DNA from: an uncultured virus (IMG/VR IMGVR_UViG_3300035188_001343)
Taxonomy: Duplodnaviria; Heunggongvirae; Uroviricota; Caudoviricetes
DNA: 64,000 nt
Virus record (IMG/VR): IMGVR_UViG_3300035188_001343
Strand: one strand, 5' to 3'
Shown: positions 12,862-59,443 of the stretch, piece after piece
Numbering within the stretch: position 1 is the first letter of the stretch
Layout: each line of letters opens with the position of its first letter
Notes under the pieces: generated by a model
What the model was told of the DNA's origin: nothing
Seen by the model: the letters and a program-made list of their open reading frames with translations, nothing else
Database searches by the model: none
Made by a program: the position numbers and the translations under genes

Positions 12862-12866
12862 AAAAT

Positions 12867-39773: not shown

Positions 39774-39807
39774 ATTAAAAAACCCCATCTTAGTGGGGTT
39801 TTTTAAT
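39774..39807. terminator. bidirectional terminator
   Basis: ATTAAAAAACCCCA-TCTTAG-TGGGGTTTTTTAAT. Confidence 0.8.
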
Positions 39808-39808
39808 G

Positions 39809-40681: not shown

Positions 40682-40698
40682 ATTTTACTCTCAAACCA

Positions 40699-41673
40699 TC
40701 AGTAATCAGATGAATTAAAACTGATTACATCATCATCGGTAGTTAAACAATCAACACGAATCCAACCTTGTTGGGTTAACACCTCATGATTTCCAGTTAA
40801 TCTTATAATGGAACCATCTACCATCGTCAATTGAAACATTTTCTGGTTTTCCGATTTCTTCAAATTTTTATGTATTTTAATAACGGGTTTATCTTCAATT
40901 GTATTGTTCGTTTCATTTAATGTTTTAACCAAATCCCCAACGGTTATCTCATCAATTCTTTTCTCTGAATTATCGGACATTTTAATCATACTGCCTGGGT
41001 GTAAACATTCATCCCATATAACACATTCAAAATCCTTAATAAATGATCTGTTGTTTTGTAATGTTTGCCAGGTAGCAACAATATTATGGGCTTCTTCATT
41101 TTTACCACTGCCAAACATACCCACTGGAATTTCAAACTGTTTTATATATTCGGCAGTTTGTTTCAATAGTGATGATGAAGGTACAACAATTATCACACGC
41201 ATGTTTAATTTGTTTGCATATTTAACAATTGCTGAGGTTAATAATGTATTGTGGTGAATAAAACCCATCGAGCATCGATATAGATGCTCCGGACTATCCA
41301 CTTCAATGTCAAACACATCTACTACAGTATCATTTATCTTGATACCAGTAATAATTTGTTCAACGTCATCTCCAATGACGTTTAATTTATCACCAACAGA
41401 TAATAAATCGGCAAATACAAGGTTTTTATCTTGCAACTGTATTAAATGTTTATTCGCACAACACACTGTATGTACATTGTTTATTGTCAATTCAACAGTT
41501 TTAGCAGTCTTTTTTATCAATCCCTTTACTGGCACCCAATTGTTTAACTCGTTCTGAATTTGAATTGGTGTGGATTGAAAATATTCTGTATCATAAATGA
41601 ATTCAACACCTTCTTCTAATGCTATCAATTCAAATAGATTGTTGTACGTAATTTCGACTTCTTTTAATCCCAT
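40699..41673 (-). CDS. IntC + UvsW-like helicase middle extein + IntN (piece 2)
   Basis: Long IntC ending FIHHN (41248); 80-aa extein TLL...VVPS...ATWQ...IWDE; IntN from CLHPGS (41007) with TGNH. Confidence 0.88.
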   Translation of the reverse strand: MGLKEVEITYNNLFELIALEEGVEFIYDTEYFQSTPIQIQNELNNWVPVKGLIKKTAKTVELTINNVHTVCCANKHLIQLQDKNLVFADLLSVGDKLNVIGDDVEQIITGIKINDTVVDVFDIEVDSPEHLYRCSMGFIHHNTLLTSAIVKYANKLNMRVIIVVPSSSLLKQTAEYIKQFEIPVGMFGSGKNEEAHNIVATWQTLQNNRSFIKDFECVIWDECLHPGSMIKMSDNSEKRIDEITVGDLVKTLNETNNTIEDKPVIKIHKNLKKSENQKMFQLTMVDGSIIRLTGNHEVLTQQGWIRVDCLTTDDDVISFNSSDY

Positions 41674-41814
41674 CAAATAAATTCCCTAAATTCAATATTT
41701 ATTCATATAAATTAATATTTTACAATATTTTCTACAAAAATAGTCGAAGCTCATCAATATAATTCAACCTGGGTAGTATAAATAAGTTAAAATTAATTAA
41801 TAAGGAAGCATAAA

Positions 41815-42171
41815 ATGATTATTGTATTTGATAAAGATGTAGATAAAAATATAACAGATATTTACACTACAGACACTTCAGTGGACGCAACTAAAGTTTT
41901 TTGGAGTTCATTAGGTAGTTCGGTATGGGTAATCGATGAGAAAAATTTCAAAATTATGATTTGTACTGACAGTGTTACAATAACGTTCAATAGTAAAGAT
42001 GCGTTAGAACCATATATTACACAAAGAAAATTATTGGCACCAAATTGGATTTATCCAACTATAAAATATAATACCGATCCATACTATGATTTACCTAAAA
42101 CTGGTGTTATTGAACATCATGTTTATAAAAATACAGATGTTGAAGCAGATTTGAAAAAAAATATGTTATAA
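41815..42171 (+). CDS. hypothetical protein
   Basis: AAGGA SD. Confidence 0.55.
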   Translation: MIIVFDKDVDKNITDIYTTDTSVDATKVFWSSLGSSVWVIDEKNFKIMICTDSVTITFNSKDALEPYITQRKLLAPNWIYPTIKYNTDPYYDLPKTGVIEHHVYKNTDVEADLKKNML

Positions 42172-42209
42172 TATATAACTAAACATTAATATTATTAGGG
42201 ATAATTATC

Positions 42210-43019
42210 ATGTTGTTAGTAGATTTAAATGAAGAAGCAAAAGAAAAAGTTTTAAAAGGATTAGGGTTATCATTAACCAAAATTAAAACGTTCGATGGAT
42301 GTAATTACAAGTATTACTTACAATATATTCTCAAAGAACCATACGATAAAGCTGCCTTCAATCCAAAGTATTTCAAAATTGGTCAGTTTGCACATAAATG
42401 GATTGAAAGTGAAATAAAAGGAGTGGTGTGTGATTTTGATTCCTCAACACTAACCGATGAAGATAAACAAAAAACTATCGGTAATTGTGCTAAGGTATTC
42501 CAAAACGAGTATATTAAAAGTATTATTGATAAAGGTGAACCAGAAAAAGAGTTTTCCTTATATATCACACCAACCGAATCGGATGGATTAGAAGCAAAAC
42601 CTACATTCTTAAAAAACGCAGATTTTCATGGGTATATTGACTATTACGCGAAGATTGGTGATACGATACACATCATTGATTGGAAAACAGGGGGTTATAA
42701 AAAAAATACCGATGATGATACATTTATGCAGTTATTTTTATACGCTAAAGCTTGTCAAAAATTAGATGATGGAAATAACTTTGTGTTGAGTTACTATTAT
42801 TTAGATCACGCAAAGATTGTTACGCAGGAACTAAGTATTTCTGAATTAGATGCAAAGATTGAAGCGGTTGTTAAAAAAGGCATAACTATTCCAACGAAAA
42901 ATGATGAAAGTTTATTTCCTGCATCACCTAGTTGGGCGTGTAAACTTTGTCCATATTCTAAAGTAAGAAGTAGTGATAATATCATACCTTGTAAATTCAC
43001 AATACAACAAACAACATAA
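42210..43019 (+). CDS. Cas4/AddB-like PD-(D/E)XK exonuclease
   Basis: N-terminal C, GYID, IIDWKTG, QLFLY, C-terminal CKLC...C. Confidence 0.8.
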   Translation: MLLVDLNEEAKEKVLKGLGLSLTKIKTFDGCNYKYYLQYILKEPYDKAAFNPKYFKIGQFAHKWIESEIKGVVCDFDSSTLTDEDKQKTIGNCAKVFQNEYIKSIIDKGEPEKEFSLYITPTESDGLEAKPTFLKNADFHGYIDYYAKIGDTIHIIDWKTGGYKKNTDDDTFMQLFLYAKACQKLDDGNNFVLSYYYLDHAKIVTQELSISELDAKIEAVVKKGITIPTKNDESLFPASPSWACKLCPYSKVRSSDNIIPCKFTIQQTT

Positions 43020-43069
43020 TATATTGTATAATTTATTAAATTAATTTAACTCAGAGATAGAAAAAAATA

Positions 43070-43807
43070 ATGAACCAAATTGACGATACTGAATATGATG
43101 ATATGATTGCATCTGAGCATTATTCAAAAAGAAAATCTAAATCTGATCGTGAAAAATCACATGTTATAGATGTTGAACATAGAGAAAGAGTGCTGTTATC
43201 ACAATTACTGAATAATGCCGAATTGTTTATTAAAGGTATCGCATTCTTAGAAAAAGATTTTTTTGAATCCAAAATAAACAGACTCATTGTTGGATTTATA
43301 AAAAATTATTACGAAAATTACAAAAGTATTCCACCAGAAGATGCCATTTTGATTGAATTAGGTATTGATGATGCTCGACATGATTGGTTGGATGTAGAAA
43401 AACAATGGCCATCCGAATACTTAGAAGATTATTTAAATGCTTTCATAAAAAATATGAGTATGAAAGGGGCAATTGAGGATTCTATCGAGTTACTCGAATC
43501 GGAAGATTATGGGGCAATTGAAAAGAAAATTAAAGATGCTGTTAATGTTGACTTAGATATTAAATTGGGTGTTACTATTGACAATGATAAAGCGGGATTT
43601 AAAAATTTGTTTGATATGTTGACATCACAAGAAGCAACAATTCCAACAGGATGGGATAATGTTGATGAGAAATTAGATGGTGGCGTAACTGTTCCATCAC
43701 TAAATTATATTCTAGCTAAAAGTGGTGGTGGTAAATGTGTTTTTCACGATACATTAGTAACCATCAAAGTATCAAAAGATCTTTATAACCGACTTTTAGA
43801 AGCTTAA
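43070..43807 (+). CDS. DnaB/gp41-like replicative helicase N-extein + 23-aa intein N-half (piece 1)
   Basis: IPTGWDNVDEKLDGG, AKSGGGK then CVFHDTLVTIK... (43736) and stop. Confidence 0.85.
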   Translation: MNQIDDTEYDDMIASEHYSKRKSKSDREKSHVIDVEHRERVLLSQLLNNAELFIKGIAFLEKDFFESKINRLIVGFIKNYYENYKSIPPEDAILIELGIDDARHDWLDVEKQWPSEYLEDYLNAFIKNMSMKGAIEDSIELLESEDYGAIEKKIKDAVNVDLDIKLGVTIDNDKAGFKNLFDMLTSQEATIPTGWDNVDEKLDGGVTVPSLNYILAKSGGGKCVFHDTLVTIKVSKDLYNRLLEA

Positions 43808-43813
43808 ACAGGT

Positions 43814-43844
43814 TGGGGAGTTTTCATTAAACTCCCCACTTTTT
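43814..43844. terminator. terminator after helicase piece 1
   Basis: TGGGGAGTTT-TCATT-AAACTCCCCA + T tract. Confidence 0.7.
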
Positions 43845-45027
43845 AACAATTCAACCAGTTTAACCTGTCATTAATTATTTTGAGAATGAAATCTCTATTT
43901 TTTTCAAGTGGAACAGAACTCCAAATTTCAAAAACATCAAAATTATTAGATTCTTTCAATAATCTATGTTTAGTAAGATCATACTCTCTAACTTCTTCGG
44001 CGGTTTTTAAATTATAAGGCTGTTGCCAATTAATCCATTTTTCTAAATCATTTTCTAACCATTTTGGGTTCGGATGAAATACCTCACCATTATATTCAAA
44101 ACACAAATTCAATTCTGGTATTGTCAAATCAAATAACCACCATCTATTATCGACAAAAATTCTAAATTCCGTATTTTCATCTTCACCAAAATAGTAATCA
44201 ATATCACAGGATTTTAAATAATCTAATATTGGTTGGAAACACAAAATTGATTCTTTCGATGCCTTTCCAATGGTTGAATATTTTTCTTTTTTCTTACTTT
44301 CATTGAACGCATGTAAATTAAACTGCCACCTTTCCTGTCTTTCTTCCCATCTTTTTAAACCATCTATTTCACCATATTTTGCAATGCATTTTTCTTTTGA
44401 AAAAGTAGTTTGTCTTTCAGTTACTTTTTTTAATGCATCTTCTTCAGAATATCCTTGATTAACCCAGTAAAATTTCGTATTAGGCATTTTCTTAGCCCAA
44501 TTTTCATATTCGATTTCTCGTTGTTTTGCTTGTTTGATATTTGTACTGTCTGCCCCTTTCTTTGCAATTTCTGAAACCTTAACTTTAGCTTCTTTTTCAG
44601 AATAACCCAAACCAATCCAATAACTGACATTGAATGTTGAGATACTTCGTTTCCTTTTGATTTCATCCCAAATTCTTTTTCCTTCTATTTCACCAAATTT
44701 GTCAATGTAATTATTTGCAGTTTGAGAATATTTTTTTCTATTTGAAATTTCGGTCCAATATTCCTTTCCAGCTTCTTCACCCATCATTAAAATATATCGG
44801 TCCCTAGTAATCGCATTTCCTAACAATTTTAATTTTTCCAATCTATCAACCCAATTTTGTAAATCATATTTCACAAAATACGCAACATTCTTACAATTCA
44901 CATTTCTAATTCGTCCAAAAATTTGTTCTAGTTCTAGAATTTGTGATTCGTGAGTAACTGTCAATTTAAAATCATTTCCCAGAACTGATATTACTTCGGG
45001 TAGTTCATTAAACTTTTTCTTTCTCAC
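43843..45027 (-). CDS. free-standing homing-endonuclease-like protein between helicase pieces
   Basis: KYGEIEG / GYSEEEA repeats; FDL...FEYNGEVFH; DxxK; EIWS. Confidence 0.7.
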   Translation of the reverse strand: MRKKKFNELPEVISVLGNDFKLTVTHESQILELEQIFGRIRNVNCKNVAYFVKYDLQNWVDRLEKLKLLGNAITRDRYILMMGEEAGKEYWTEISNRKKYSQTANNYIDKFGEIEGKRIWDEIKRKRSISTFNVSYWIGLGYSEKEAKVKVSEIAKKGADSTNIKQAKQREIEYENWAKKMPNTKFYWVNQGYSEEDALKKVTERQTTFSKEKCIAKYGEIDGLKRWEERQERWQFNLHAFNESKKKEKYSTIGKASKESILCFQPILDYLKSCDIDYYFGEDENTEFRIFVDNRWWLFDLTIPELNLCFEYNGEVFHPNPKWLENDLEKWINWQQPYNLKTAEEVREYDLTKHRLLKESNNFDVFEIWSSVPLEKNRDFILKIINDRLNWLNC

Positions 45028-45189
45028 GCGTATTTCTCCAAGTTATTCTTTGATAGCTCTTTTAATTACTCAGTCTTTAACTATCATTTTTTCCTTAATG
45101 ATTTTTTTCAAACGAAGGTGTAATTGTGGTGAAATTGTAAATCCACCTTTAACTCTTTTTTTAGTATCATCGATTTTTGGTTTGGATAT
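45025..45189 (-). pseudogene. degenerate ribbon-helix-helix-like small gene
   Basis: SD GGAG, ATA in place of ATG, SKPKIDDTKKRVKGGFTISPQLHLRLKK...KD*VIKRAIKE with internal TGA and a 3' frameshift. Confidence 0.4.
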
Positions 45190-45286
45190 TTTCTTCTCCA
45201 AATTTATTTTTTGATAGTATAATATATTTTAGTATTATTATACATTTGTTTACACAACCTTAATATTTTTTTATCAACGTTATGAG

Positions 45287-45676
45287 ATGATGCTTATGCT
45301 TAAAGAACTTTTAGAAATGGTCGTAGTGAAAATAATGAAATTTGATAAAGAACATGATTTAACCCTTTTAGAAAGCACAAATGAAAATGCCTTATTAAAG
45401 GTAAAGTTTAATGATGTTGATTGTGGACTTTTGATGCTGACAACTGATTGTGATTTGAATCGAAAAGCAATAATACTTTCAAATACAATTAAGAATACCA
45501 TTTTTGATTTTTTTATTTTGATGAATGTTGATAACATTATAGTAATGTTTACAGATCATCAAGGGAATTTGTTCCCACAACACATTTCAACAAAAAATGA
45601 AAATATGGTAGAATTAGTTTGTAGTAAACCTTTTCTAAAAAACCTTATAGCAAATCGCGGAGTTGAATATCTATGA
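45287..45676 (+). CDS. hypothetical protein
   Basis: ORF ATGA-coupled to helicase piece 2; true start probably downstream. Confidence 0.5.
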   Translation: MMLMLKELLEMVVVKIMKFDKEHDLTLLESTNENALLKVKFNDVDCGLLMLTTDCDLNRKAIILSNTIKNTIFDFFILMNVDNIIVMFTDHQGNLFPQHISTKNENMVELVCSKPFLKNLIANRGVEYL

Positions 45677-46857
45677 ATGTTATCGAAAACACTGAAAATG
45701 ATGTAGAAATCCAGTTAACAATGGGTGAACTATTTGAAAAAATGGAAAAATTAAGAAATCTCAAATTTTCTGATACCGATGATGATGAACAAATTCTAGG
45801 AATTGATGAACAATTCAAAATAAGAAACGAACACAATGAGTGGATCGATGTTATTGGTATGGTAACAAAGTTTGATTCAGTAGATGAAATTACGTTCGAA
45901 TCTGGAAACAAATTGAGAGCATCCCCAAAACATATACTTGCCTATGATAAACTACATACCAAATATCTAAAAGACTGTAAGGTGGGTGATAAAATAAAAA
46001 AAGCTGATGATGAATTTGACACTATTGTTTCGATAAACAACATTAGTAATAGAGGGAAACTGTATGATCTACAAGTCGCATCAGATACTCACCTGTACCA
46101 AACATCCGATGGTTTAATTCATCATAATTCTATCGGTTTAGTTAATCTTAGTTGGAATTACATTCAACAAGGAAAAGATGTAATTTACATTTCATTAGAA
46201 TTAAAAGAAGCTAAAATTATTAAAAGGTATATTACTCATTCCACAAAAATAAAAACCTTCGATATTCCGAATAAAGAATTTGAAATTTTTAACCATCTTA
46301 AAAAATGTGATGAAAAAGGTTATGGTAGGTTTACAACTCATTTTTACCAACCAAATACATTAACATCAATGAAGTTGGAATTGTTTATAAGACATTACAT
46401 ACAAAAATACAGCACTGTGCCAGTAATTGTAGTAGATTACGCAGGTTTAATGATTCCCAATACCAAAGGATGGCAAGGTATGTTTGAGCGAGACAAGTAT
46501 GTTTCGGAAGAATTGAGAGGTGTTGCTACTCTATTTAACACAGTAGTATGGTCGGCAGACCAATACAACCGGTGTATTGCGTTTGGTGAAACTGTAGAAA
46601 CACCAACAGGTAAAAAAAATATAGAAGATATTGTAATTGGTGATAAAGTTTTGGGTACTAATAATGAATTCAGATTAGTAACCGATGTTACCGAACCCGA
46701 TGAACAAGAAGTTTATGAAATTACTACTAAAAGTGGTAAGAAAGTAGTAGTATCGGGCAGACATATTTTTCCTAAATATGTTGATGGAAAAATAATAGAT
46801 GACAATATTTTTTGCACCCTTAAAGTTGGTGATTCGATTTATGTAAATGGGGATTAG
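45673..46857 (+). CDS. IntC + DnaB-like helicase middle extein + IntN (piece 2)
   Basis: 152-aa IntC ending LIHHN (46128); extein SIGL...YISLE...VVDYAG...SADQYNR; IntN from CIAFGE (46573) with SGRH. Confidence 0.88.
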   Translation: MNVIENTENDVEIQLTMGELFEKMEKLRNLKFSDTDDDEQILGIDEQFKIRNEHNEWIDVIGMVTKFDSVDEITFESGNKLRASPKHILAYDKLHTKYLKDCKVGDKIKKADDEFDTIVSINNISNRGKLYDLQVASDTHLYQTSDGLIHHNSIGLVNLSWNYIQQGKDVIYISLELKEAKIIKRYITHSTKIKTFDIPNKEFEIFNHLKKCDEKGYGRFTTHFYQPNTLTSMKLELFIRHYIQKYSTVPVIVVDYAGLMIPNTKGWQGMFERDKYVSEELRGVATLFNTVVWSADQYNRCIAFGETVETPTGKKNIEDIVIGDKVLGTNNEFRLVTDVTEPDEQEVYEITTKSGKKVVVSGRHIFPKYVDGKIIDDNIFCTLKVGDSIYVNGD

Positions 46858-48380
46858 TCCCCATTTAAAAATTTGTTACATGATTCAATAACATTTTGTT
46901 GATTATTTTTGTAATCATTTTCCCAAACCACTTTCACATCGAAACCTCGGTTTTCTAAAATTTTAACTCTCAATGCGTCATGTTTTCTTTTTTCAAACAC
47001 TGTTAAATTATCACATGGAAGTACATAGTTATCATCGTAAAAATCTGGGTTTCCATGCCAAAAATCACCGTAAAACTCAATGATTTTATTTCCCAAAAGA
47101 AAATCTGGGCGGATAAACATTTTTTTTAGAATTCGATATTCATCAACAGTTAAAGAAATGAGTTCTTCATTGTCTCCAAATTTTGCATGGTTACAATCTA
47201 ACTTGGTGAACAAATCAAAGGAAATCATTGAATAACTTTTTGATAGTTTCGATTGATGTTCGTTCCACCGATTAGTGCCTTCCACATTACCGTAAAGCCT
47301 AATGTAATTTTTCAAGGTATATTTTTCACGTTGATTCACCTGCATATCACTAAACGCCTCTACACCTTTTTGTTCACCAAACAACTCAATTTTTCTTTCC
47401 AATGTTAAATTACCTGCATTGTGGTTACATCGATTCTTAAATTTTTCTTTCCCTACTAGCAATCCATACTTTGCAATGTAGCCTTTTTCCGAATTTGCAA
47501 ATGAAATCTTTTCTCGATACTCTTTCCATTTTCTCAACCCTTCTTCTACACCATATTTTTCAATTAATCGATTTTCCGATATAGTACACCTCAATTTCTT
47601 TTCTTCAAATCTTCGCAATCCTTCAATTTCACCAAATCGTAAAATATGAATTTCTTTTGATGATGCATCTGTTTTCAAATGAGCTAGTAACCTATCAAAT
47701 CGGTCTAAATAATTATCATCTACCCCATATTTCACCCAATATGCTAAATTTTTTTTCCTATCATCGGTAACTGTTCTTTTCTCTAATACCTCAGTAACTT
47801 TTAATTCCATTTCTCGACTAATTATGGTGTCATCCAAAATATGTTTGACGGTTTTTCGATTCTTCCATCTGTCAAAAAGAGTATTACACTGCTTAATATT
47901 GTTCACACCATACTTTTCAATGTTTGTTCTTTCTACCTTATATTTAATTTTTTTAGATGCGAAACCTAAACCACCACACGATTTCACTGTTGATTCTTTT
48001 CGTTTTAATTTAATTTTTTCAGATGAATACATACATCCCCTCGAACAAAATTCATCATACCCCTCTTTTGGGCTTCTAAATTTAGTTGATTTTCCACACT
48101 CACAAATATTGGGTGTCATACTCAATCGCAAACAATATAATCTTTCCGATATAGTGCTACAATCAACCAAGTATGAAGTCATATTAACTAATTCCATAAC
48201 TAGTTCACGATTTTTTACCTTGTTTTTGTTGTATGGTTTTGAAATACCGCTCGGGTAAAACTCTTTTAATATCTCTTCGCTTGTCATACCAAAAAACCTA
48301 TTTTCAATCACATTTGGTAAATATTTTACATTTTTTATAGTATAATATAATAAACATTTTGAATTATAATGGTCACACAA
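46854..48380 (-). CDS. free-standing homing-endonuclease-like protein
   Basis: CECG...FCSRGC, KYG repeats, RPDF...IEFYGDFWHGNP, VVWE; true start may be internal. Confidence 0.7.
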   Translation of the reverse strand: MCDHYNSKCLLYYTIKNVKYLPNVIENRFFGMTSEEILKEFYPSGISKPYNKNKVKNRELVMELVNMTSYLVDCSTISERLYCLRLSMTPNICECGKSTKFRSPKEGYDEFCSRGCMYSSEKIKLKRKESTVKSCGGLGFASKKIKYKVERTNIEKYGVNNIKQCNTLFDRWKNRKTVKHILDDTIISREMELKVTEVLEKRTVTDDRKKNLAYWVKYGVDDNYLDRFDRLLAHLKTDASSKEIHILRFGEIEGLRRFEEKKLRCTISENRLIEKYGVEEGLRKWKEYREKISFANSEKGYIAKYGLLVGKEKFKNRCNHNAGNLTLERKIELFGEQKGVEAFSDMQVNQREKYTLKNYIRLYGNVEGTNRWNEHQSKLSKSYSMISFDLFTKLDCNHAKFGDNEELISLTVDEYRILKKMFIRPDFLLGNKIIEFYGDFWHGNPDFYDDNYVLPCDNLTVFEKRKHDALRVKILENRGFDVKVVWENDYKNNQQNVIESCNKFLNGD

Positions 48381-48931
48381 TGAAAATCATACAGCATCCA
48401 GATACCTATATATGTGAAATATGTGGGGCAGAATATAAACGAAAAGAATTAGCAGAATATTGTGAAAATTTCAACCTATCCACATCAGAAATATCGATTG
48501 GGGATACTATTTTAGTTGAAAGTCGTTATGATGGTTACTTTGAAGAAAAAGTTACCGATGTATTGTTAAAAAGCACACAGGTATTCATTAGACAGGATGA
48601 TGAACAAGATATAATTACTCATCGAGATGGCACCAAATATACCCCATTAGAATGGGTTAAAAAATTTGATTTGCAACCACATAAATGGGTCATAATAACA
48701 GAAAACGATATTGAAATTTGTAAAAATGGTTCTACCAGCAACGAATGGTATGAAAGTGAGGTAGTAGATTTAAAAAAATGTCAGTGGGTTGATGATTATG
48801 AATCAATGCCACAGGAATGTATTGTTAAATGGTTTGAAAATGGAATTATTACAATTCGAAATAGTGGTAAGGAACATTATAAACAACACTGGTCTTATAA
48901 AACAACTTTTATTGCATGGTTGAAAAAATAA
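48380..48931 (+). CDS. hypothetical protein with Zn-finger-like N-terminus
   Basis: YICEICG...AEYCE. Confidence 0.55.
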   Translation: MKIIQHPDTYICEICGAEYKRKELAEYCENFNLSTSEISIGDTILVESRYDGYFEEKVTDVLLKSTQVFIRQDDEQDIITHRDGTKYTPLEWVKKFDLQPHKWVIITENDIEICKNGSTSNEWYESEVVDLKKCQWVDDYESMPQECIVKWFENGIITIRNSGKEHYKQHWSYKTTFIAWLKK

Positions 48932-48932
48932 T

Positions 48933-49349: not shown

Positions 49350-49368
49350 ACTTTTTAGGAGTTTGTGA

Positions 49369-49755
49369 ATGAACGTAGAATTTAACCAAAACGTCGAAAA
49401 ATTAACTACTTATATTTTAGAAAGTGAAGAGGACCATTTTTTAGAAACTGTTGGTATTGAATCAATAGAACAATACACAAACACCGAAAATTTCAATCAC
49501 ATATATCAAAATGCTCATAAGATTAGACAACTATTAAATGAAGGAAAATCCGTTAGAGGTGTTAACGTTGAATTAGTTGCATTTGCCTTATCAAGAAGAA
49601 TAGTAGATGAATATGATTCACACTTAGAAGAAACAACACATATTTTACAAAATTCTTTATACACAATGTTACTTGATAACCCAGATGAATGTGAACGGCT
49701 GTGGAGTATTGGCATTATTGAAGAAGATTATTTTGACGACATTCTATTTGGATAA
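49369..49755 (+). CDS. hypothetical protein
   Basis: AGGAG SD; ends DDILFG. Confidence 0.6.
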   Translation: MNVEFNQNVEKLTTYILESEEDHFLETVGIESIEQYTNTENFNHIYQNAHKIRQLLNEGKSVRGVNVELVAFALSRRIVDEYDSHLEETTHILQNSLYTMLLDNPDECERLWSIGIIEEDYFDDILFG

Positions 49756-49766
49756 TCAAAGTCAAT

Positions 49767-49810
49767 TCTGTTGAATCTTAGGATAATAAGATACTCTAAG
49801 ATTCAACAGA
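49767..49810. terminator. bidirectional terminator
   Basis: 15-bp inverted repeat TCTGTTGAATCTTAG / CTAAGATTCAACAGA. Confidence 0.7.
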
Positions 49811-49816
49811 CTAAAA

Positions 49817-50236
49817 TCATTTTGGTGAATTAATGAGACTATGTGAAGCCATAAAACGAACCAACCCTCGTAAACCATAAGTAACTATTGTTATTCCAAC
49901 TAATAAACCAACATACCAATCGGGAATACCTTTCATTATTTCAAACCCAGTAACTGCAATTTCTTGAATTCTAGGTATAAAGGAAACAATCAAAGGTGAA
50001 AATAAAATAACCAAAATAAATTCATCCTTCCAGCTTTTATCCATCTGTTCCATTGCGGTTCTATCCAGACTTTCATCACTACCAATATCTTTACCAGATT
50101 CAATAATTTTTTCTTCGATATCGAGACGTTTTAACCGAATCTCATGTTCTCTGGTGTCAATCACCATAGACCGTTCGATTTCGAGTGCTTTTCGTTTTTC
50201 TTTTTCAGTTAAATAAGAATTAAATTTTTCAAACAT
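49817..50236 (-). CDS. GTA-type 3TM holin-like protein
   Basis: SWKDEF...P...FIP; GF...PDWY; YGLR; AGGAGG SD; upstream ATAAATA. Confidence 0.7.
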   Translation of the reverse strand: MFEKFNSYLTEKEKRKALEIERSMVIDTREHEIRLKRLDIEEKIIESGKDIGSDESLDRTAMEQMDKSWKDEFILVILFSPLIVSFIPRIQEIAVTGFEIMKGIPDWYVGLLVGITIVTYGLRGLVRFMASHSLINSPK

Positions 50237-50357
50237 ACTACCTCCTAAAGGTTGTATCACTATTCAAAAATATTTATCAGACAATTTTTTTTTGAAAATT
50301 CATACATTCACCAAATTTCCATATAAATAGTATAAAATCTTAACTTTAGGAGGTAGT

Positions 50358-50561
50358 ATGTTTGATAACGAAAGAACTTTAAAATGGTCAGATGGAATCT
50401 TAAAATTTCCATGTGGTGTTACCGTTGAATTAGATGAAAAACAATTAAAAAAGTTACTCACGGCTTTCAAATTAGAATCCGAAATTGATAATATGATTAA
50501 TAACGGTTCAATGACAATTGCAAAAGGTAGAGCATTCCAAATTAAACACCACTTAACGTAA
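50358..50561 (+). CDS. small hypothetical protein
   Basis: AGGAGG SD. Confidence 0.6.
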   Translation: MFDNERTLKWSDGILKFPCGVTVELDEKQLKKLLTAFKLESEIDNMINNGSMTIAKGRAFQIKHHLT

Positions 50562-50580
50562 TATCCATTTATTTGTGGGG

Positions 50581-51873
50581 TTATTCTATGGTAATAGTAT
50601 CAAGTAAATCCCCACCTTCTATATGCATTTTATAGATATTACCTCCGTTACGAACCTCTAATCTAAAAGTAAGCAATATATTCTTTTTAGAATTAACTTC
50701 CCGAATGCCAAATTTCGGTCTTTTATTGTCTAAGGCATAATAAGCTTCCAATTCATACGATGATAATTTACTTTCAATATCTTTGTAAGAAAAAACTTTA
50801 AAATCCCCTTTATTTAAATGTACCTTAGATACATCCTCATCTTTTGTTGCAAAATATTTAATAGCAGAGCTAAGAGTGTGAATAAAAGTTTTCTCACCAC
50901 CTTTTTGTTGGAACATTTTATTCAATTTAATTGTAGTTAGTTTAAACACTGAAGCATACCAGTCTTCTTCTTTTACAAATGGTGCGTTCCACTCTTTTAT
51001 ATCAATACCCAAACGTTCTATTGCATCACTAATTTTCTCATATGATACACCCGTTTGTTCCAAGTTTTTTGTTTGACCGGCTTTTAATGATAAATTTAGA
51101 TTGGTTAATACTGGTTCACCTTTATTAATACCAATCATAACTTTCAAATCAACCTTAGTTCCTTTTTCATCTACCGAACCAACCGAGGAAATATCTACAG
51201 TGTCATCAGTGCCATTATTACCCAATAAATCTGCGTGCTCAAAAACATATGTAGAATTTGCGTATTTAACTGCTGCGGTGAATTCATCATTCATCATTGA
51301 CCAATTTTTATCATCAAACAAAGCTTTTAATTGTGCAGGTTTTAAACTTATGGTTAGCGAGATATTATCATTACCTGATTTTGGTGTTTTGTCAGATTTT
51401 AATGATGTCGATGCAGTTTTAGTAGATTTATTCATCGATGTTAAAATACTTTTTATATCATCAATATCAATAGTTTTAAATGGTTGCTTGAACTTTGCCG
51501 CAATAGCTGCACCTAAAATACCTTCCGCAACATCACCCCTATTAAACTTAACATCACCAACTGAAAATGGTGTTTTTTCAATTTTAGTCCATGATATTAA
51601 TTTAGCGGGTACACTATCATCATCAATTGTAAATCGCCCATCTTTGCTTTTTAAAAAATCTCTAACCTGATTATCATCGGTAAAACTTCTAAGTTTATCA
51701 ATAACATCATTCTTCTTTATGATTACCATAGTGGTTTTATCACTAAGTTGAATTTGTTCACCTACATCCACTTTTTGTAGAAATTTTGCAACATAATTTC
51801 TACCAGGTTTTGTTATATCACCATACGAAAACCCACCTTCTAATAAAACACTTATAAGTTCAACTACATTCAT
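50581..51873 (-). CDS. hypothetical protein, possible restriction-endonuclease-like fold
   Basis: GDVAEG...TKVD...LSLK; upstream ATAAATA. Confidence 0.55.
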   Translation of the reverse strand: MNVVELISVLLEGGFSYGDITKPGRNYVAKFLQKVDVGEQIQLSDKTTMVIIKKNDVIDKLRSFTDDNQVRDFLKSKDGRFTIDDDSVPAKLISWTKIEKTPFSVGDVKFNRGDVAEGILGAAIAAKFKQPFKTIDIDDIKSILTSMNKSTKTASTSLKSDKTPKSGNDNISLTISLKPAQLKALFDDKNWSMMNDEFTAAVKYANSTYVFEHADLLGNNGTDDTVDISSVGSVDEKGTKVDLKVMIGINKGEPVLTNLNLSLKAGQTKNLEQTGVSYEKISDAIERLGIDIKEWNAPFVKEEDWYASVFKLTTIKLNKMFQQKGGEKTFIHTLSSAIKYFATKDEDVSKVHLNKGDFKVFSYKDIESKLSSYELEAYYALDNKRPKFGIREVNSKKNILLTFRLEVRNGGNIYKMHIEGGDLLDTITIE

Positions 51874-52047
51874 AAAATTCCCTATTTTAATTTTTAATAC
51901 TAATATTTATCATACATACTAACAAAAACTATATACAATACCATGATTAAATTTTAAAATAGTATATTCTTTTTAAACAATTTCACTTTCGTGTGAATAT
52001 TTTGTAAAATTAACACATAAATCAATCAACAATAAAAGGAAAACCTA

Positions 52048-53154
52048 ATGACACCTAGAAAAATTTTTTCAATACCTTTAAACCCATATACCACAGCAGA
52101 AGATTATGAAAAAATATTTGTGCCGTTTTTATTGAAATATAAAGATTGGATCTACGACATTTATTTTACATGTAGAATCCCACCATTCTTACAAGATAGT
52201 ATGGGTGCAGTATTTAAAGAAGAACAACTCATCCAAATGTTTCAGAATGCGATGACATTACAAGAACGTACCGGTGTAACCGTTTCTGCGACTTTCAACA
52301 ACATTAACGTACCACCTACAACTGAAAATTTAGAAATTTTTGTCAACAATTTACAATATCTATATGATGCAGGTTTAAGAAGTATGACCCAACCACATAA
52401 TCATTGGATGATGTCAAAAGTATTCAAAGAAAAATTTCCAGAATTACAAGTTAAAAATACAGTATTGAAACGTGTTGCAACCGCACAAGATTTTTGGTTA
52501 GCCGCAGAACTCGGATATGATTATGTCAATATTGATAGAATTTTACTAAGAGATGAAACTATGTTGGGTAGAATTCGAGAAGCCCAAATTAAATTCCAAG
52601 CAGAAACTGGTAAATATGTACCAACAGCGTTATTAGCAAATGAAGGGTGTCTCGGTAAATGTCCCGCAATGAATGAACACTACACACTCAATAGTGCCAG
52701 TGGTTCAAGACAGCCTGGAACTGATAAACCTTACTTCCATCAATCAATTAGTAAAAACACCTGTCCAAAATGGAGATTAGAAGATCCTGCTTATTCATTT
52801 AAAATGGCTAATATCCCACCCTATAGAGAAGATGTTGAACGTATTCTTGATAAAGTGGATATTCTTAAAATGCATGGTAGAGAAGGATTTGGTCTACTAA
52901 ACTCAACAATATCATTTGTCGAAAGTTATGTAAATGCTGACGCAGAATTATTCGATATTTCAGTTAGAACACAGATTGAAGATTTAATGGTGCAACCTAA
53001 AGTGTTGGATGCATGGAGAACACATATTAGAGATTGCAAATTTGAATGTTGGGATTGTCACTTATGTGATAAATTAGTTGAATCGGCACAAAAGAAAAAA
53101 GATAAAAATCTAGGAACTTCAATCGATCAATTGATTGCGAATTTTGAAGGATAA
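52048..53154 (+). CDS. peptidase U32-family-like (Fe-S) protein
   Basis: LANEGCLGKC...C, LKMHGRE, C-terminal CxxxCxxCxxC. Confidence 0.65.
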   Translation: MTPRKIFSIPLNPYTTAEDYEKIFVPFLLKYKDWIYDIYFTCRIPPFLQDSMGAVFKEEQLIQMFQNAMTLQERTGVTVSATFNNINVPPTTENLEIFVNNLQYLYDAGLRSMTQPHNHWMMSKVFKEKFPELQVKNTVLKRVATAQDFWLAAELGYDYVNIDRILLRDETMLGRIREAQIKFQAETGKYVPTALLANEGCLGKCPAMNEHYTLNSASGSRQPGTDKPYFHQSISKNTCPKWRLEDPAYSFKMANIPPYREDVERILDKVDILKMHGREGFGLLNSTISFVESYVNADAELFDISVRTQIEDLMVQPKVLDAWRTHIRDCKFECWDCHLCDKLVESAQKKKDKNLGTSIDQLIANFEG

Positions 53155-53220
53155 TACAGCGTCGGTTTCTCTGGGATATTTTCTCAGAGAAACTATCTAA
53201 ATTTTTACATGGGGAAACAA

Positions 53221-53661
53221 ATGAAATTAGGTACAATACTTACAAAAACTACACCTACCGTATTTTTAGGTGGTACATGCAATGAATCTTTATGGCGAGA
53301 TGAATTAATAAAATTATTAAATGTCAATTATTTCAACCCTGTAGTTGATGATTGGACGGAAGAGGCACAGAAAAATGAATTATATCAAAGAGAAAATTGT
53401 GAATTTGTTCTCTACGTTTTAACACCTGCAATGACTGGTGTTTATAGCATAGCTGAGAGTGTTGATGATTCAAATAAACGTCCAGAAAAATGTTTGTTTT
53501 GTGTGTTGCCAACGGATAACAAACTGTCATTCGATAAGACACAATTAAAATCATTAAATATGGTTAAAAATATGATTGCTGAAAATGGTGCTAAAGTTTT
53601 TGATTCATTGGAAGAAATTGCGGAATTTTTAAACAGTACAGTTGATCTTGAAAAAAACTAA
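53221..53661 (+). CDS. nucleoside 2-deoxyribosyltransferase-like protein
   Basis: VFLGGTCNESLWR, FNPVVDDW, YSIAE. Confidence 0.7.
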   Translation: MKLGTILTKTTPTVFLGGTCNESLWRDELIKLLNVNYFNPVVDDWTEEAQKNELYQRENCEFVLYVLTPAMTGVYSIAESVDDSNKRPEKCLFCVLPTDNKLSFDKTQLKSLNMVKNMIAENGAKVFDSLEEIAEFLNSTVDLEKN

Positions 53662-53774
53662 CCTATCAATCACTTCGATTATAGACAAACAGAAAATAAC
53701 GTTGGTAATCTTTGGATATTTTACAAAGAAAAAACACAAAAATAAATATCAATCTTAAAAATAAGGAATTAAAA

Positions 53775-54689
53775 ATGGCAGTTATTCAAAATATCTTTAA
53801 AAACCTCGAATACAAACTTAACATGACCGAAGAAATTAAACTCTTTAAATGGTCACAAAAACCCATCATAGAAAAAATTTCTGATTTGATGGACTGGAAT
53901 GAATCATTTGGTCCAGATGCCATTATTGTAAAGGCAGCAGAACAAATTCTACAACTGAATTACCCAAACGAGTATTTAAAATATTCTGCGGCTCAACAAA
54001 AATTTAAACATTCCCACCCGTTTCACATCGAACCAGAAATTGAAGATGTAAGTGGGTTTATCGATTGGATTAATAGCGTATTTGATAAATTTGAAGGATT
54101 GCAAGAAGGGTTACTTGGAGGATTAGTTATTAGTCCCGCTGTAGAAGGAACTACTGTTTCTTGTGAATATGAAAAAGGCAAATTACAACGAGTCCTCAAC
54201 AAGGGGGATGGTGAAGATGCAGAAATGTTAGTAAATCTTATGGATTTAGGTTCAATTCCTCAAGAAATTTCAATTAAAAAGAACATCGTCGTAAGAGGAG
54301 TAATAACTTTAAAGGATCCATCTAAAAGATCTAAAGGTTCATCCGTTACTGCTACAGTTAATGAAACAATTTTCAAAGATAAGGCAGATGATACAAATTT
54401 AATATTCTTACCTACAGAATGGTTGCCTGCAGATGGTAATAGAATTAATACCTCCAAAGCATACCAAACTTTAAAAGATAATGGATTTCAAGTACCTGCG
54501 GTTTTTACAGCATCACAGGTCGTAGAGGCACTTTCCAAATATGAGGAATATATGGGGACGGATTTTGGTTATTATGTTTACGGTGCAAGAGTTGAAATTG
54601 AAAAAGGTGAAACAATAAACAGTTTATTATCTTTTATGAAAGATGATCAATCATCGAGTTACTATCATAAAGTAATCATAGTGAAGTAA
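53775..54689 (+). CDS. NAD-dependent DNA ligase adenylation-domain homologue, probably inactive
   Basis: SPAVEG...YEKGKLQRVLNKGDGEDAE...VVRG parallels LigA EPKxDG...Y..G.L....TRGDG..GE...EVRG; catalytic Lys absent. Confidence 0.6.
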   Translation: MAVIQNIFKNLEYKLNMTEEIKLFKWSQKPIIEKISDLMDWNESFGPDAIIVKAAEQILQLNYPNEYLKYSAAQQKFKHSHPFHIEPEIEDVSGFIDWINSVFDKFEGLQEGLLGGLVISPAVEGTTVSCEYEKGKLQRVLNKGDGEDAEMLVNLMDLGSIPQEISIKKNIVVRGVITLKDPSKRSKGSSVTATVNETIFKDKADDTNLIFLPTEWLPADGNRINTSKAYQTLKDNGFQVPAVFTASQVVEALSKYEEYMGTDFGYYVYGARVEIEKGETINSLLSFMKDDQSSSYYHKVIIVK

Positions 54690-54703
54690 AAACACATATT
54701 ATC

Positions 54704-55192
54704 TCATTGGTTTTGATAATTATTGACTATTCCATCACCTGTGTACTTAGCAACCCATGAAATCTCATTAGTAAAAAATCGAGCAGCAGTGAATCCGGCA
54801 TCATCACAAAAATCAAACCAATGTTTTGTAAATGCCGGAATTCCAATCACATCTCCTTCTACACAATGAATGATATACACTAAGTCATCAATGTGAATAT
54901 AAAATTTTCCACCACCTTGTATAAAAAACCTAATTTCATAATCTGAATGAGTATGTTCTCGGAAAAATTTTTCTCTGAACATACCAATATTATTTTCATC
55001 GGGTAAAAAAGTTACAACATCGGTATTAGACACATTAAACAACTCTTTTAATTTCATTATACTACGTTCGGATTTATCATGTGACCTATTATCGAAATAA
55101 ATTCCAATCTCTAAAAGAATGTTTTTAATAATCTCAAATTCGGTAGAGGTATACATATTAACATTATTTGAAAAAACAACTAATTTACTCAA
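54704..55192 (-). CDS. mtnD: acireductone dioxygenase
   Basis: EHTHSDYEIRFF, GGGKF, GDVIGIPAFTKHWFD, AARFF, W. Confidence 0.85.
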   Translation of the reverse strand: MSKLVVFSNNVNMYTSTEFEIIKNILLEIGIYFDNRSHDKSERSIMKLKELFNVSNTDVVTFLPDENNIGMFREKFFREHTHSDYEIRFFIQGGGKFYIHIDDLVYIIHCVEGDVIGIPAFTKHWFDFCDDAGFTAARFFTNEISWVAKYTGDGIVNNYQNQ

Positions 55193-55216
55193 TTTTATTT
55201 CTCCTAAAACCTGATT

Positions 55217-55507
55217 TTATTTCTTTTTTGCCCATTTTTTAAATGTTTTTGCAAGTGTTGCTCGTTTCTTTTTTAAAGCCCATGCATCATACTCTTTTTT
55301 TGACATATTACCATTTTTAAATTTAATTTTTGCCTTTTCATATTCCTGCTCAACATATTTTATACAAGAGTGCGATGATTTTTTAAATCCCATCTCTTTA
55401 CATTGTGCAGTAAATGAACCAACAGTACCTTTTTCTTTCATGGATTTTGCGACATCTTGAGCCCACCATTCACATATCAAACTACCATTTAATTCTTGGA
55501 GTTTCAT
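55217..55507 (-). CDS. small basic protein with MKLxEL N-terminus
   Basis: W(A)QD...GSFTAQC...KRATLAKTFKKW. Confidence 0.6.
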   Translation of the reverse strand: MKLQELNGSLICEWWAQDVAKSMKEKGTVGSFTAQCKEMGFKKSSHSCIKYVEQEYEKAKIKFKNGNMSKKEYDAWALKKKRATLAKTFKKWAKKK

Positions 55508-55857
55508 GATAAATCGACAATCAGTTTTTTCATATCTTTTTCAGATGTAATGGTGAAATCATATTGTGTGGTTGGAATAACTTTTGGATCAATAGCATCC
55601 TCATGTGTATCATGGTGATCAATTGCAGCAACCAAAACACCATCCTCATTTCTAAAAGATATTCTGCCTTTACCAGATACAACATTTGCATTAAAATTCA
55701 AAACATATTCACTATCTTCACCACCATATTTAACATCGACGTTAGAATTTTTAAAATTCTGCTTAATAAGTTTTCTTTGATCGGGAGTTAATGGTAACAT
55801 TTTTGGTTTTTGTGGTTTTTTACCAAATATACTTTCATTCAAATCTAATAATTTCAT
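55504..55857 (-). CDS. hypothetical protein with MKLxDLNE N-terminus
   Basis: AGGA SD; TATAAATA upstream. Confidence 0.6.
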   Translation of the reverse strand: MKLLDLNESIFGKKPQKPKMLPLTPDQRKLIKQNFKNSNVDVKYGGEDSEYVLNFNANVVSGKGRISFRNEDGVLVAAIDHHDTHEDAIDPKVIPTTQYDFTITSEKDMKKLIVDLS

Positions 55858-55881
55858 AAATTATTATCCTTTTATAATTTT

Positions 55882-55899
55882 GTATAATATTTATTTATA
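55882..55899. promoter_or_regulatory. adjacent opposite-strand promoter boxes: GTATAAT (+) and T4-late-type TATAAATA (-)
   Basis: GTATAAT at 55882-55888; TATTTATA at 55892-55899. Confidence 0.5.
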
Positions 55900-55910
55900 A
55901 ACACATTAAG

Positions 55911-56948
55911 TTGAGCAAAAATATGATATATGCATGTATAAAAGATTTCCCAAATACGTCTATTGTTGTTGGTGATGAACTTGAAATAATTAAACTTGAA
56001 AACGGTGAATACATAATAGATGGTGCAATTACAACTGATAGCACTATCGTTTATGAATTTTTTGAAAAAAAGAAACTAAAAGGTGTAATGTATTCTCCTT
56101 ATTCACATTCTAAAATGGAAACATGGGTATCATGTCCAAAAAAATTTGAATATAATTACATCATCAAACCACCCAGAGTTGAAATACCAAATGCAATTTT
56201 AGAAAAAGGAACTCTTTTTCATGCAATACTCGAATTTGACATGGTTGATAAATTAGATGAATTTAGTATTAACGATAAGTTCAAGGCATTAAACAAATCT
56301 ACCGCAAATGAAATAATTGAACAGGCATTAATTTTTACAGATGAATCCAAAACGTATCAATGGATAAAATCATTAGACGGTATTAAGGTTACTGAACAGG
56401 AAATGTTTTTAGGTGTAGATTTAGAACCAGTACAAGATATTTCAACTGCTCTTATAAGAGGATTTATTGATTTACTAATATACGATGAAAAGACTAAGAC
56501 CTGTTACATTTTTGATTGGAAAACAGGAGGGAAATCTAAAGAATCTTTGGAAAAATGGCCGAAACCAAAGGATCAATTGGAATTATACGCTGTTTGGGCA
56601 GAACAAAATTTTGATGTTGCCTCAATCATTACAGCATTCATTTACGTTGAACATGACCATATAGCAAAATACCATTTTAAGAAAAATGATATTTCGGGAT
56701 TGAAAAAGAAATTTAAAGATAAGATAAGTAACATTGAAACAGATAACACATTTTCAAAAAATTTATCTCAATTATGTGCATGGTGTGATTTTCGCACATT
56801 ATGTCTTGGTATAAGTATAGAGAGAGAACCTAGATCAATAACATTAGACGAAATAAAAGTTGCAAGTAAAATGGTTGGGGTGGAAAAAAAGAATAAAGAA
56901 AATAGTAAAAATAAAAAATTTTTTGATAAAATCAAACAAAAATTTTAA
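55911..56948 (+). CDS. Cas4/AddB-like PD-(D/E)XK exonuclease
   Basis: SHSK...CP, RGFID, FDWKTG, QLELYA, CAWCDF...C. Confidence 0.8.
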   Translation: MSKNMIYACIKDFPNTSIVVGDELEIIKLENGEYIIDGAITTDSTIVYEFFEKKKLKGVMYSPYSHSKMETWVSCPKKFEYNYIIKPPRVEIPNAILEKGTLFHAILEFDMVDKLDEFSINDKFKALNKSTANEIIEQALIFTDESKTYQWIKSLDGIKVTEQEMFLGVDLEPVQDISTALIRGFIDLLIYDEKTKTCYIFDWKTGGKSKESLEKWPKPKDQLELYAVWAEQNFDVASIITAFIYVEHDHIAKYHFKKNDISGLKKKFKDKISNIETDNTFSKNLSQLCAWCDFRTLCLGISIEREPRSITLDEIKVASKMVGVEKKNKENSKNKKFFDKIKQKF

Positions 56949-57021
56949 AATTATAATTTAACGGGAACCTAGGGTTATTATTGATTCACCATTGGTTCCC
57001 ACTAACAGGAAACCACTAATA

Positions 57022-57558
57022 ATGTCAGAAAAAAAAAGAATACCAATAACTATTGAAAAGATAAATTCATCAACCTTCCAATTAACCAAAATATCTTCTG
57101 TTGATATAGCGAAAATTTCTGAAAAATTTTCGTGGTTGCCAGCAAACTACAAATATGACCCAAAATTCAGATTGTTAGGTATCAAGGGTGTCAAAATAAG
57201 ATTAGTACAGCAAAATGGTATGTTTCCATCGGGTCTATTTAATGATGTAGTAGATTTTATTAAAAATGATTTAAACAAACAAGTAACTATATCGGATGAT
57301 ATAAATGAACATTTTTTATCACTAGTTGATTTTTTTAAAGATGGAATCAGTGATAAAATTTTTTCAGATTTTGAATTTGATGGATCACCTGTTATATTGC
57401 GAGATTACCAATTGGGTGCGGTTGAATCGAGTTTTGAAAATAGAAATTGTCTTTTAAACCTTTCAACTGGTGCTGGTAAATGTTTAGGAGGAAATACCAA
57501 ATTGAAAGTTAAATTACCTACAGAAATTATTGAAAAATATCCACATTTATCCGAATAG
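57022..57558 (+). CDS. UvsW-like helicase N-extein + 25-aa intein N-half (piece 1)
   Basis: LRDYQ Q-motif, STGAGK then CLGGNTKLKVK... (57481) and stop. Confidence 0.85.
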   Translation: MSEKKRIPITIEKINSSTFQLTKISSVDIAKISEKFSWLPANYKYDPKFRLLGIKGVKIRLVQQNGMFPSGLFNDVVDFIKNDLNKQVTISDDINEHFLSLVDFFKDGISDKIFSDFEFDGSPVILRDYQLGAVESSFENRNCLLNLSTGAGKCLGGNTKLKVKLPTEIIEKYPHLSE

Positions 57559-57567
57559 GTATTATTT

Positions 57568-59407: not shown

Positions 59408-59443
59408 TCAATATAGTTTACCAATCAATACGAGGATGAAATA

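Follow-up and report, generated by a model that had tools for sequence, protein, structure and literature searches.

Two related, atypically split inteins at the P-loops of a DnaB-like and a UvsW-like helicase of a large freshwater phage

Introduction

The natural atypically split inteins that have been characterised, in which a short N-terminal fragment (IntN) is completed by a long C-terminal fragment (IntC), include AceL TerL, GOS TerL, VidaL and PolB16 (PMC13014065). With split sites S1 and S2 as defined in PMC13014065, VidaL and PolB16 OarG are split at S1 and have IntNs of 16 and 15 amino acids (aa) (PMC13014065, PMC10189870), whereas AceL-TerL, GOS-TerL and the consensus intein Cat (6dsl) are split at S2 and have IntNs of 25–37 aa. 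Few natural split inteins with an IntN small enough for peptide synthesis have been characterised, and such inteins are in demand for the semisynthesis and labelling of proteins (PMC13014065, PMC10189870). Here we analyse a 64,000-nucleotide stretch of DNA from an uncultured virus (IMG/VR record IMGVR_UViG_3300035188_001343), which we call the window, and describe two related inteins of the atypically split kind that interrupt two helicases, one DnaB-like and one UvsW-like, at their P-loops.

Two further systems are close to this locus. The engineered Ssp DnaB S1/M86 and Ssp DnaX S1 inteins have an IntN of 11 aa (PMC3443213), and in the fractured genes of environmental phages the natural splits lie, with one exception, at the canonical site of the endonuclease domain (Dassa et al. 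2009, PMC2677866). Natural atypically split inteins and fractured genes are therefore already known kinds.

The two inteins of the window share the short IntN and long IntC with VidaL (6vgv) and PolB16 OarG (8cpn). Cys1 is common to VidaL and both inteins, whereas PolB16 has Ser1 and sits in a DNA polymerase. They differ from VidaL and PolB16 in the length of the IntN (23–25 aa in the window, 21–29 aa across the family described below), which is owing to a helix after strand beta1, in having helicase P-loops as their hosts, and in sequence, with which they share an identity of 15–25% only. In IntN length they are similar to the AceL-TerL group, and they also share with it an origin in phages or metagenomes and class-1 chemistry, with Cys1 in AceL-TerL; the residue after the intein (+1), however, is Ser or Thr here and Cys in AceL-TerL (PMC11766414). 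The engineered S1 inteins have an equal split point and an IntC that alone is a near-complete HINT domain, but they were made artificially and do not have the additional helix on the IntN, whereas the family found here is natural and conserved as split. The DnaB locus resembles the fractured genes of Dassa et al. in its order, which is the host N-terminal part with the IntN, a free-standing endonuclease gene, and the IntC with the host C-terminal part. An endonuclease C-terminus that is REase/DUF7487-like and a second DnaB intein that resembles gp41-1 are further likenesses. Here, in contrast to those genes, the intein is split at S1, the endonuclease gene runs antisense and the two UvsW halves are no longer neighbours. 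No paper on this family or on helicase P-loop hosts was found in the open literature, where a prior description is possible. The points that deserve notice at this locus are the family-wide S1 split with its added helix and the presence of two members together with three other split inteins in one phage.

Results

Two inteins interrupt the Walker A motif of two helicases

The open reading frame (ORF) at 43070–43807 (+) encodes the N-terminal part of the DnaB-like helicase, the IntN and a TAA stop, and the ORF at 45673–46857 (+) encodes IntC residues 1–152 followed by SIGLVNL.. of DnaB_C. For the UvsW-like helicase, the ORF at 56992–57558 (+) encodes the N-terminal part, the IntN and a TAG stop, and the ORF at 40699–41676 (-) encodes the IntC followed by TLLTSAI.. 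of a ResIII helicase. The coordinates and strings of both IntNs given in the earlier note, which had been made from the sequence alone, are exact, base for base, and the translations match. The N-exteins showed 69% identity to the uninterrupted DnaB of L001 and 60% identity to the UvsW homologue of G002, respectively; G002 (224 kb) and G001 (306 kb) are the related virus records that were searched.

Both inteins were said in that note to interrupt GK-S/T (the hyphen marks the insertion point), and this agrees with the intein-free alleles, which read seamlessly through the junction. The intein-free DnaB of L001 reads ..SGGGKSIGLINL.. (junction GGGK-SIGL), that of G002 reads ..LAKSGGGKSIGLINLAWNY.. 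and the intein-free DnaB allele P0047 reads GGK-SVALTNL. Likewise, the intein-free UvsW-like genes of L017–L019 read GTGAGK-T... On the other side of the junction, Cys1 directly follows the N-extein (GK-C) in both inteins and in 8/8 aligned N-tails.

The proposed likeness of the two long IntC partners was confirmed by BLASTP (27% identity over 143 aa, E-value 1e-15) and by hhalign of the two family alignments (99.65% probability, E-value 3.9e-25, 140 columns). Both inteins have the catalytic set of Cys1, block B His, block F Asp and His, HHN and a Ser or Thr at +1. H87, D132, H140, H150, H151 and N152 are invariant in 27 family members. The His of block B TxxH is invariant (H87 and H76), and the Thr position is occupied by Ser or Ala (SPKH and ANKH).

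AlphaFold2 models of the DnaB and UvsW IntCs had a predicted local distance difference test (pLDDT) score of 89.5 and 90.3, respectively. Foldseek searches with these models gave 55 matches at an E-value of 1e-3 or below, which were inteins and HINT domains only, with the Pho RadA mini-intein at the top (E-value 5e-7). Alignment of the models to solved inteins with VIA-align gave a Z of 15.3, a root-mean-square deviation (rmsd) of 2.6 and 137 aligned residues for DnaB, and a Z of 14.9, an rmsd of 2.5 and 140 aligned residues for UvsW. Both IntCs are thus modelled as HINT folds that lack the first strand only. The reading of the locus as two related atypically split inteins in the P-loops of DnaB-like and UvsW-like helicases is borne out by the catalytic blocks, the fold, the intein-free alleles, the conserved split and the model of the DnaB complex. 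Judged from conservation and the models, both elements are very probably class-1 inteins of a single Walker A GK-S/T family and are likely to be working.

The split is present in independent contigs and is conserved

The earlier note had allowed that the stop codons after the IntNs might be sequencing errors. This is not the case, as both stops are bridged with 0 differences by contigs assembled from three other runs (X3 at 43470–44153, X4 at 43504–44164 and X5 at 57485–57997). In the contigs of these runs the start of the UvsW IntC is likewise covered with no differences.

A tail of 21–24 aa followed by a stop was found in 19/20 homologues of the DnaB N-piece, the window's own included; the twentieth is an intein-free allele. 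The DnaB stop position recurs in 18 further protein clusters and the tails carry the motif ..T-L-I-N-I-K-x-S-K-x-L-Y-x-K-L. A search of viral contigs and a first metagenome scan gave no matches to the UvsW N-piece, and a metagenome scan with an alignment as query gave 3 loci. Four distinct N-pieces of this type stop after 25–28 aa (25 in the window, 26–28 in the relatives). One of them is that of G002, which has an IntN of 28 aa and in which the halves lie on opposite strands at a distance of about 15 kb, the layout that is seen in the window; two further ones end after 26 and 28 residues. The UvsW N-piece was not found in G001, a record that is possibly a fragment. For the other half, the protein lengths of 17/17 DnaB-type and 10/10 UvsW-type IntC homologues fit an IntC-first arrangement, and all those that were read begin with the IntC. 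The start codons of the two IntC ORFs are preceded by GGAG (DnaB), which is a ribosome-binding site, and AGGGA.

The split lies in the turn after the first strand

The IntC models align with canonical inteins from target residues 11–13 onwards, beginning at model residue 9–11 for DnaB and 2–4 for UvsW. In the alignment to Npu DnaE, 10..154 was paired with 11..139, and with gp41-1 residue 11 aligned to residue 11. As the models start at target residues 11–13, beta2 and alpha1 would be on the IntC and the IntN would supply beta1 only. VidaL residues 16–18 onwards align with IntC model residues 1–6 (Z 13.3 for DnaB and 12.3 for UvsW), whereas with Cat chain B the alignment starts no earlier than model residue 31 (DnaB) or 23 (UvsW), which represents a different split site. 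The models therefore place the split of both inteins at the S1 position, in the turn after the first strand. An S2 split of the AceL-TerL kind, in which the IntN tail would be helix alpha1, was ruled out, as the IntC models contain both beta2 and alpha1.

The description of the 23-aa and 25-aa tails as intein halves is correct for their first ~10–12 residues, which are canonical (beta1). The remaining 11–15 residues are an extra helix, which is kept within each lineage and differs between the types, with a consensus of SKxLYxKL in the DnaB type and [PS]xxLIxKY in the UvsW type.

Complex prediction was carried out with DnaB IntC residues 1–163 and a 45-residue N-tail, as the cognate pair and with 3 controls. 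The cognate complex had an ipSAE of 0.83 (0.82–0.84 among runs) compared to 0.00 for the best of the 3 controls; the ipSAE mark that was applied is reached by 116/157 solved complexes and by 2/215 mismatched pairs. The pLDDT of the partner was at least 62 and the contact agreement among runs at least 81%. In the predicted complex TLVTIK of the IntN pairs with IntC residues 11–17 and 48–51, GGK-CV lies beside HHNS and block B, and the IntN tail SKDLYNRLLEA is in the interface, where it contacts IntC residues 1, 4, 9–10 and much of 20–27 (helix alpha1). The claim that the halves complement each other is thereby supported by prediction for the DnaB cognate pair. As intein complexes have already been solved, a pass in this test amounts to likeness rather than to proof of binding.

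The two inteins belong to a large family aimed at P-loops

A profile of 8 IntCs was searched against 1.84 billion representative sequences. This gave 1541 matches at an E-value of 1e-3 or below, 206 at 1e-10 or below and 34 at 1e-30 or below. Split inteins with a short IntN had been called rare in the earlier note; few have been characterised (PMC13014065), but the family itself is common in metagenomes, with 206 representative clusters at an E-value of 1e-10 or below. Against solved structures the family profile matched PolB16 (E-value 2e-6), Pho RadA (3e-5) and VidaL (2e-4), and CatC marginally (E-value 0.13).

Among the best 150 representatives, the IntC was at the protein start, which is the split form, in 101; it was internal with GK-C upstream (the contiguous or fused form) in 14 and internal otherwise in 7, and 28 were partial matches. 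In P0048, P0051 and 12 other representatives a single protein runs from GK-C and beta1 through the tail and a short linker into the IntC domain. These contiguous or fused members could be cis-splicing relatives or fusions that followed the loss of an endonuclease gene. The +1 residue of the 121 members assessed was Thr in 97, Ser in 23 and Cys in 1. Pfam domains in the 101 split members were AAA_2 (19), AAA_5 (17), ResIII (12), AAA (10), RecA (6), PhoH (4), DnaB_C (3), ABC (1) and SNF2 (1).

Insertions of this intein family at GK-T, with IntNs of 26–29 aa, were found elsewhere in Clp-type AAA+ proteins (IMG/VR contigs L009–L011 and L013), in a PhoH-like protein (IMG/VR contig L012) and in an AAA ATPase of G001 (L005), the nearest related phage record. 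The Clp-type AAA+ proteins are split at their second P-loop. In L005, the ORF at 2220–3452 (-) ends in ..GEPGIGK-C plus a tail of 29 aa, and ~270 nt further on the ORF at 1–1947 (-) carries an IntC ending in GFIHHN-T; G001 has 12 Intein_splicing matches in all. Additionally, a UvsW-like homologue at ~2850–3060 of L015 carries a different intein at GK-T, the C-terminal block of which reads ..HLYLTDEFIVTHN-TSMCAA.

A tree of 27 IntCs groups them by host gene, with a support of 99/95 for DnaB, 100/98 for UvsW and 100/98 for Clp. The two inteins of the window are therefore old separate lineages and not the outcome of a recent duplication. In L009–L011 the Clp IntN and IntC are separated by an antisense homologue of the 394-aa endonuclease-like gene of the DnaB locus (27–31% identity, E-values 1e-29 to 1e-31), from which it follows that the intein and this gene family travel together. 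In L013 the intein halves are adjacent with nothing between them, and L012 has a same-strand endonuclease-like ORF. Within the window, the fractured-gene layout, in which an endonuclease gene lies between adjacent halves, is present at the DnaB locus but not at the UvsW locus; the UvsW halves have no endonuclease gene beside either of them.

Discussion

Proposed assembly and origin

In each helicase the N-piece consists of the N-extein, beta1 (~10–12 residues from Cys1) and the conserved helix of 11–15 residues, after which it stops. The C-piece opens with the remainder of the HINT domain, which comprises beta2 and alpha1, the His of block B, the Asp and His of block F and the HHN of block G, and its +1 Ser or Thr is the Ser or Thr of Walker A. 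In the assembly that we propose, the IntN would dock after translation next to beta2 of the IntC, where it would fill the place of the missing strand and pack its tail helix against alpha1. Standard trans-splicing would then join GK to S/T, so that the ATP-binding loop would exist only after splicing. The placement at GK-S/T would make ATP binding strictly splicing-dependent and it may be speculated that this dependence is a post-translational checkpoint. With respect to origin, the family appears to be mostly split at S1 in nature. The split may have arisen where a free-standing homing-endonuclease gene sits, of which the DnaB copy retains one in antisense, and the UvsW halves would have been separated from each other later.

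Several observations count against the view that these are working inteins that assemble both helicases. The block B Thr of TxxH is lost in both of them, and we infer splicing from conservation and models. When intein halves pass the complex test, this may stem from their likeness to solved inteins and not from the binding of this copy, and the docking support covers the DnaB pair only. The third DnaB piece was not found in the window, so full assembly is seen only in part. Evidence from RNA is weak: metatranscriptome run X23 contributes only four pieces of 151 nt, located in the endonuclease gene and in DnaB piece 2, and these may be carried-over DNA.

Possible outcomes of two related inteins in one cell

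The window raises the question of how wrong ligations are avoided, given that four split inteins are needed to make two essential helicases and that the phage would run at least five such inteins at once. A tentative answer is that the IntN helix after beta1 is a lineage-specific address tag, which packs on alpha1 of its own IntC and lets S1-split inteins coexist without cross-splicing. We regard this as possible although short of probable. If it were true, the window would hold a naturally orthogonal pair with short IntNs, which the three typical split inteins, unrelated to it, would extend to a natural orthogonal set of five. The family, with its at least 101 split representative clusters, would then amount to a library of orthogonal tags that are within reach of peptide synthesis. 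The locus provides two related Cys1 inteins with Ser or Thr at +1 and with their natural extein contexts, and points to a large Walker A family.

Alternatively, the two inteins could cross-react in the infected cell, such that part of the DnaB N-piece would be joined to the UvsW C-piece and the reverse, and the chimeras would be either waste or functional. Both inteins have an identical type of junction and the same fold, and their IntNs follow a common pattern of C1, T6, alternating hydrophobics and K11 and then a helix. The UvsW-type IntN of L022 (~1660–1830, 26 aa) has a DTLLNIK core that is the same as that of the DnaB-type P0029 and P0031, and an engineered S1-type IntC has spliced with foreign IntNs of 11–12 aa that were only 41–50% identical (PMC3443213). 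The IntNs of the window, however, are identical at 3/23 aligned residues (3 of the first 12), their IntCs share 27%, and the two types form the separate, well-supported clades described above with tail helices conserved within but not between them. P0002, P0018 and P0031 have an equal longest contig (40,524 bp) and so are probably on one contig, in which case both types would co-occur in a relative, and this would argue that the pair is tolerated. A DnaB/UvsW chimera would also join mismatched domains. On balance, cross-reaction seems unlikely.

A third reading is that the inteins are splicing-dead relics, and that the helicases are either held together non-covalently through the intein halves or are pseudogenes. 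The replacement of the block B Thr in both inteins is in keeping with this, and the fractured NrdA gene of phage Aeh1 still gives a working enzyme without an intein (PMC2677866). Against it, the nucleophiles and the catalytic His, Asp and Asn are invariant or nearly so across relatives at 26–80% identity, the exteins of both helicases are well conserved, and an unspliced product would have a domain of ~175 residues inside its Walker A loop; we judge relics to be improbable. That ordinary contiguous inteins merely look split through errors of assembly or sequencing can be dismissed with near certainty: contiguous or fused members do exist among the best 150 representatives, but the identical contigs from three other runs, the recurrence of the same stop in 18 further clusters, the 1.2-kb antisense gene between the DnaB halves and the separation of the UvsW halves, ~15 kb apart on opposite strands as in G002, all speak against it.

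Features of the two loci

The features of the two helicase loci are listed in Table 1.

Table 1. Coordinates of features at the DnaB and UvsW loci, numbered from the first nucleotide of the window
Feature	Position	Strand	Evidence and remarks
UvsW C-extein, 255 aa, Helicase_C domain	39812..40576	-	Pfam Helicase_C, E-value 8.4e-8
Second UvsW intein IntC, 35 aa, ends CVKN; starts next ORF, 17 nt downstream	40577..40681	-	Pfam Intein_splicing positions 122-155
Second UvsW intein IntN, typical split, 102 aa, at DE-CH	40702..41007	-	Pfam Hint and Intein_splicing
UvsW middle extein, 80 aa, TLLTSAI...VIWDE, Walker A Thr to DExH box	41008..41247	-	Pfam ResIII
UvsW P-loop IntC, 142 aa from ATG, ends GFIHHN	41248..41673	-	Asn codon 41248-41250; 10 homologues
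DnaB/gp41-like helicase N-extein, 222 aa, ends ..AKSGGGK	43070..43735	+	PHROG 19 DnaB-like replicative helicase, E-value 4.7e-21
DnaB P-loop IntN, 23 aa, CVFHDTLVTIKVSKDLYNRLLEA	43736..43804	+	TGT first codon, GCT last; TAA 43805-43807
Terminator-like hairpin	43814..43838		Between convergent DnaB piece 1 and endonuclease gene
Free-standing homing-endonuclease-like gene, 394 aa	43843..45027	- (antisense between DnaB intein halves)	phrog_22677, E-value 2.9e-10
129-aa ORF, stop overlaps IntC start (ATGA)	45287..45676	+	Between endonuclease gene and IntC
DnaB P-loop IntC, 152 aa, ends GLIHHN	45673..46128	+	GGAG 10 nt before ATG; 17 homologues
DnaB middle extein, 148 aa, SIGLVNL...DQYNR	46129..46572	+	Pfam DnaB_C; T4-type DnaB-like helicase 8due, E-value 2e-8
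Second DnaB intein IntN, typical split, 94 aa, directly after DQYNR	46573..46854	+	gp41-1 intein 6qaz, E-value 1.5e-7
Second antisense homing-endonuclease-like gene, 508 aa, DUF7487 / REase-like C-terminus	46854..48380	-	Also matches homing-endonuclease PHROG
UvsW-like helicase N-extein, ends ..LSTGAGK	56992..57480	+	Pfam UvsW_N, E-value 6.8e-6; PHROG DNA helicase
UvsW P-loop IntN, 25 aa, CLGGNTKLKVKLPTEIIEKYPHLSE	57481..57555	+	TGT first codon, GAA last; TAG 57556-57558

The hairpin is the sole terminator-like site between 43000 and 46000, where shuffled sequences had a mean of 0.6. The two antisense homing-endonuclease-like genes have their match to phrog_22677 in common. The 129-aa ORF matched no family in Pfam or PHROG; structural leads from the Atlas to clusters of PD-(D/E)xK-type nucleases are weak, with scores below 0.9, TM-scores of 0.5–0.59 and a low-confidence model.

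Other split inteins in the window

Each helicase has a second, ordinary split intein (DnaB-2 and UvsW-2) and each would therefore be assembled from three polypeptides. The UvsW middle extein is contiguous in P0020, P0024 and P0027, and relatives without the second UvsW intein read WDEVHGAKA. An IntC and C-extein for the second DnaB intein were not found in the window by regular-expression motif scans, which could miss a divergent IntC, and the ORF at 48359–48931 had no DnaB or intein match in the Pfam and PHROG scans. Additionally, the gene for topoisomerase IV subunit A is broken by a typical split intein, with ORFs at 26651–27193 (+) and 27230–28483 (+). Its IntN is ~93 aa and its IntC 41 aa, ending in VIHN-S, and the two ORFs are separated by 36 nt and by no endonuclease gene. 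The window thus has at least five split inteins (the two at P-loops, DnaB-2, UvsW-2 and that of the topoisomerase). The three typical ones showed no significant similarity among themselves.

Source of the window and neighbouring genes

The window has a GC content of 28–36% and encodes genes of large phages, namely a Cpn60 chaperonin, QueC, PhoH, Hen1/Pnkp, NAMPT and topoisomerase IV subunit A. Near-identical DNA is present in lake-water and freshwater metagenome runs, and the window's own DnaB N-piece is also recorded on a contig of 227,833 bp. The source of the window is a large freshwater phage. Megablast of positions 39800–48400 gave no match among GenBank phage records, and tblastn of the DnaB IntC against 50,697 GenBank phage records gave 3 weak matches, all of them to terminase inteins of Vibrio phages.

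The phage genome is rich in DUF7487 endonuclease-like genes. Besides the one at the DnaB locus, antisense genes of this kind were found at 19088–20215 (-) (E-value 1e-75) and at 25385–26596 (-) (E-value 2e-39), the latter sitting just upstream of the split topoisomerase gene. DUF5591 was matched by two near ORFs, 12855–13598 (+) and 14506–15162 (+), with one ORF between them. This pair lies next to QueC (9998–10762) and may represent a queuosine/archaeosine pathway gene that has been duplicated or fractured. An RNA-repair pair, which consists of a Hen1 methyltransferase (E-value 5e-70) followed by a Pnkp-like kinase/phosphatase/ligase, was found at 58136–62119 (+), directly downstream of the UvsW N-piece region.

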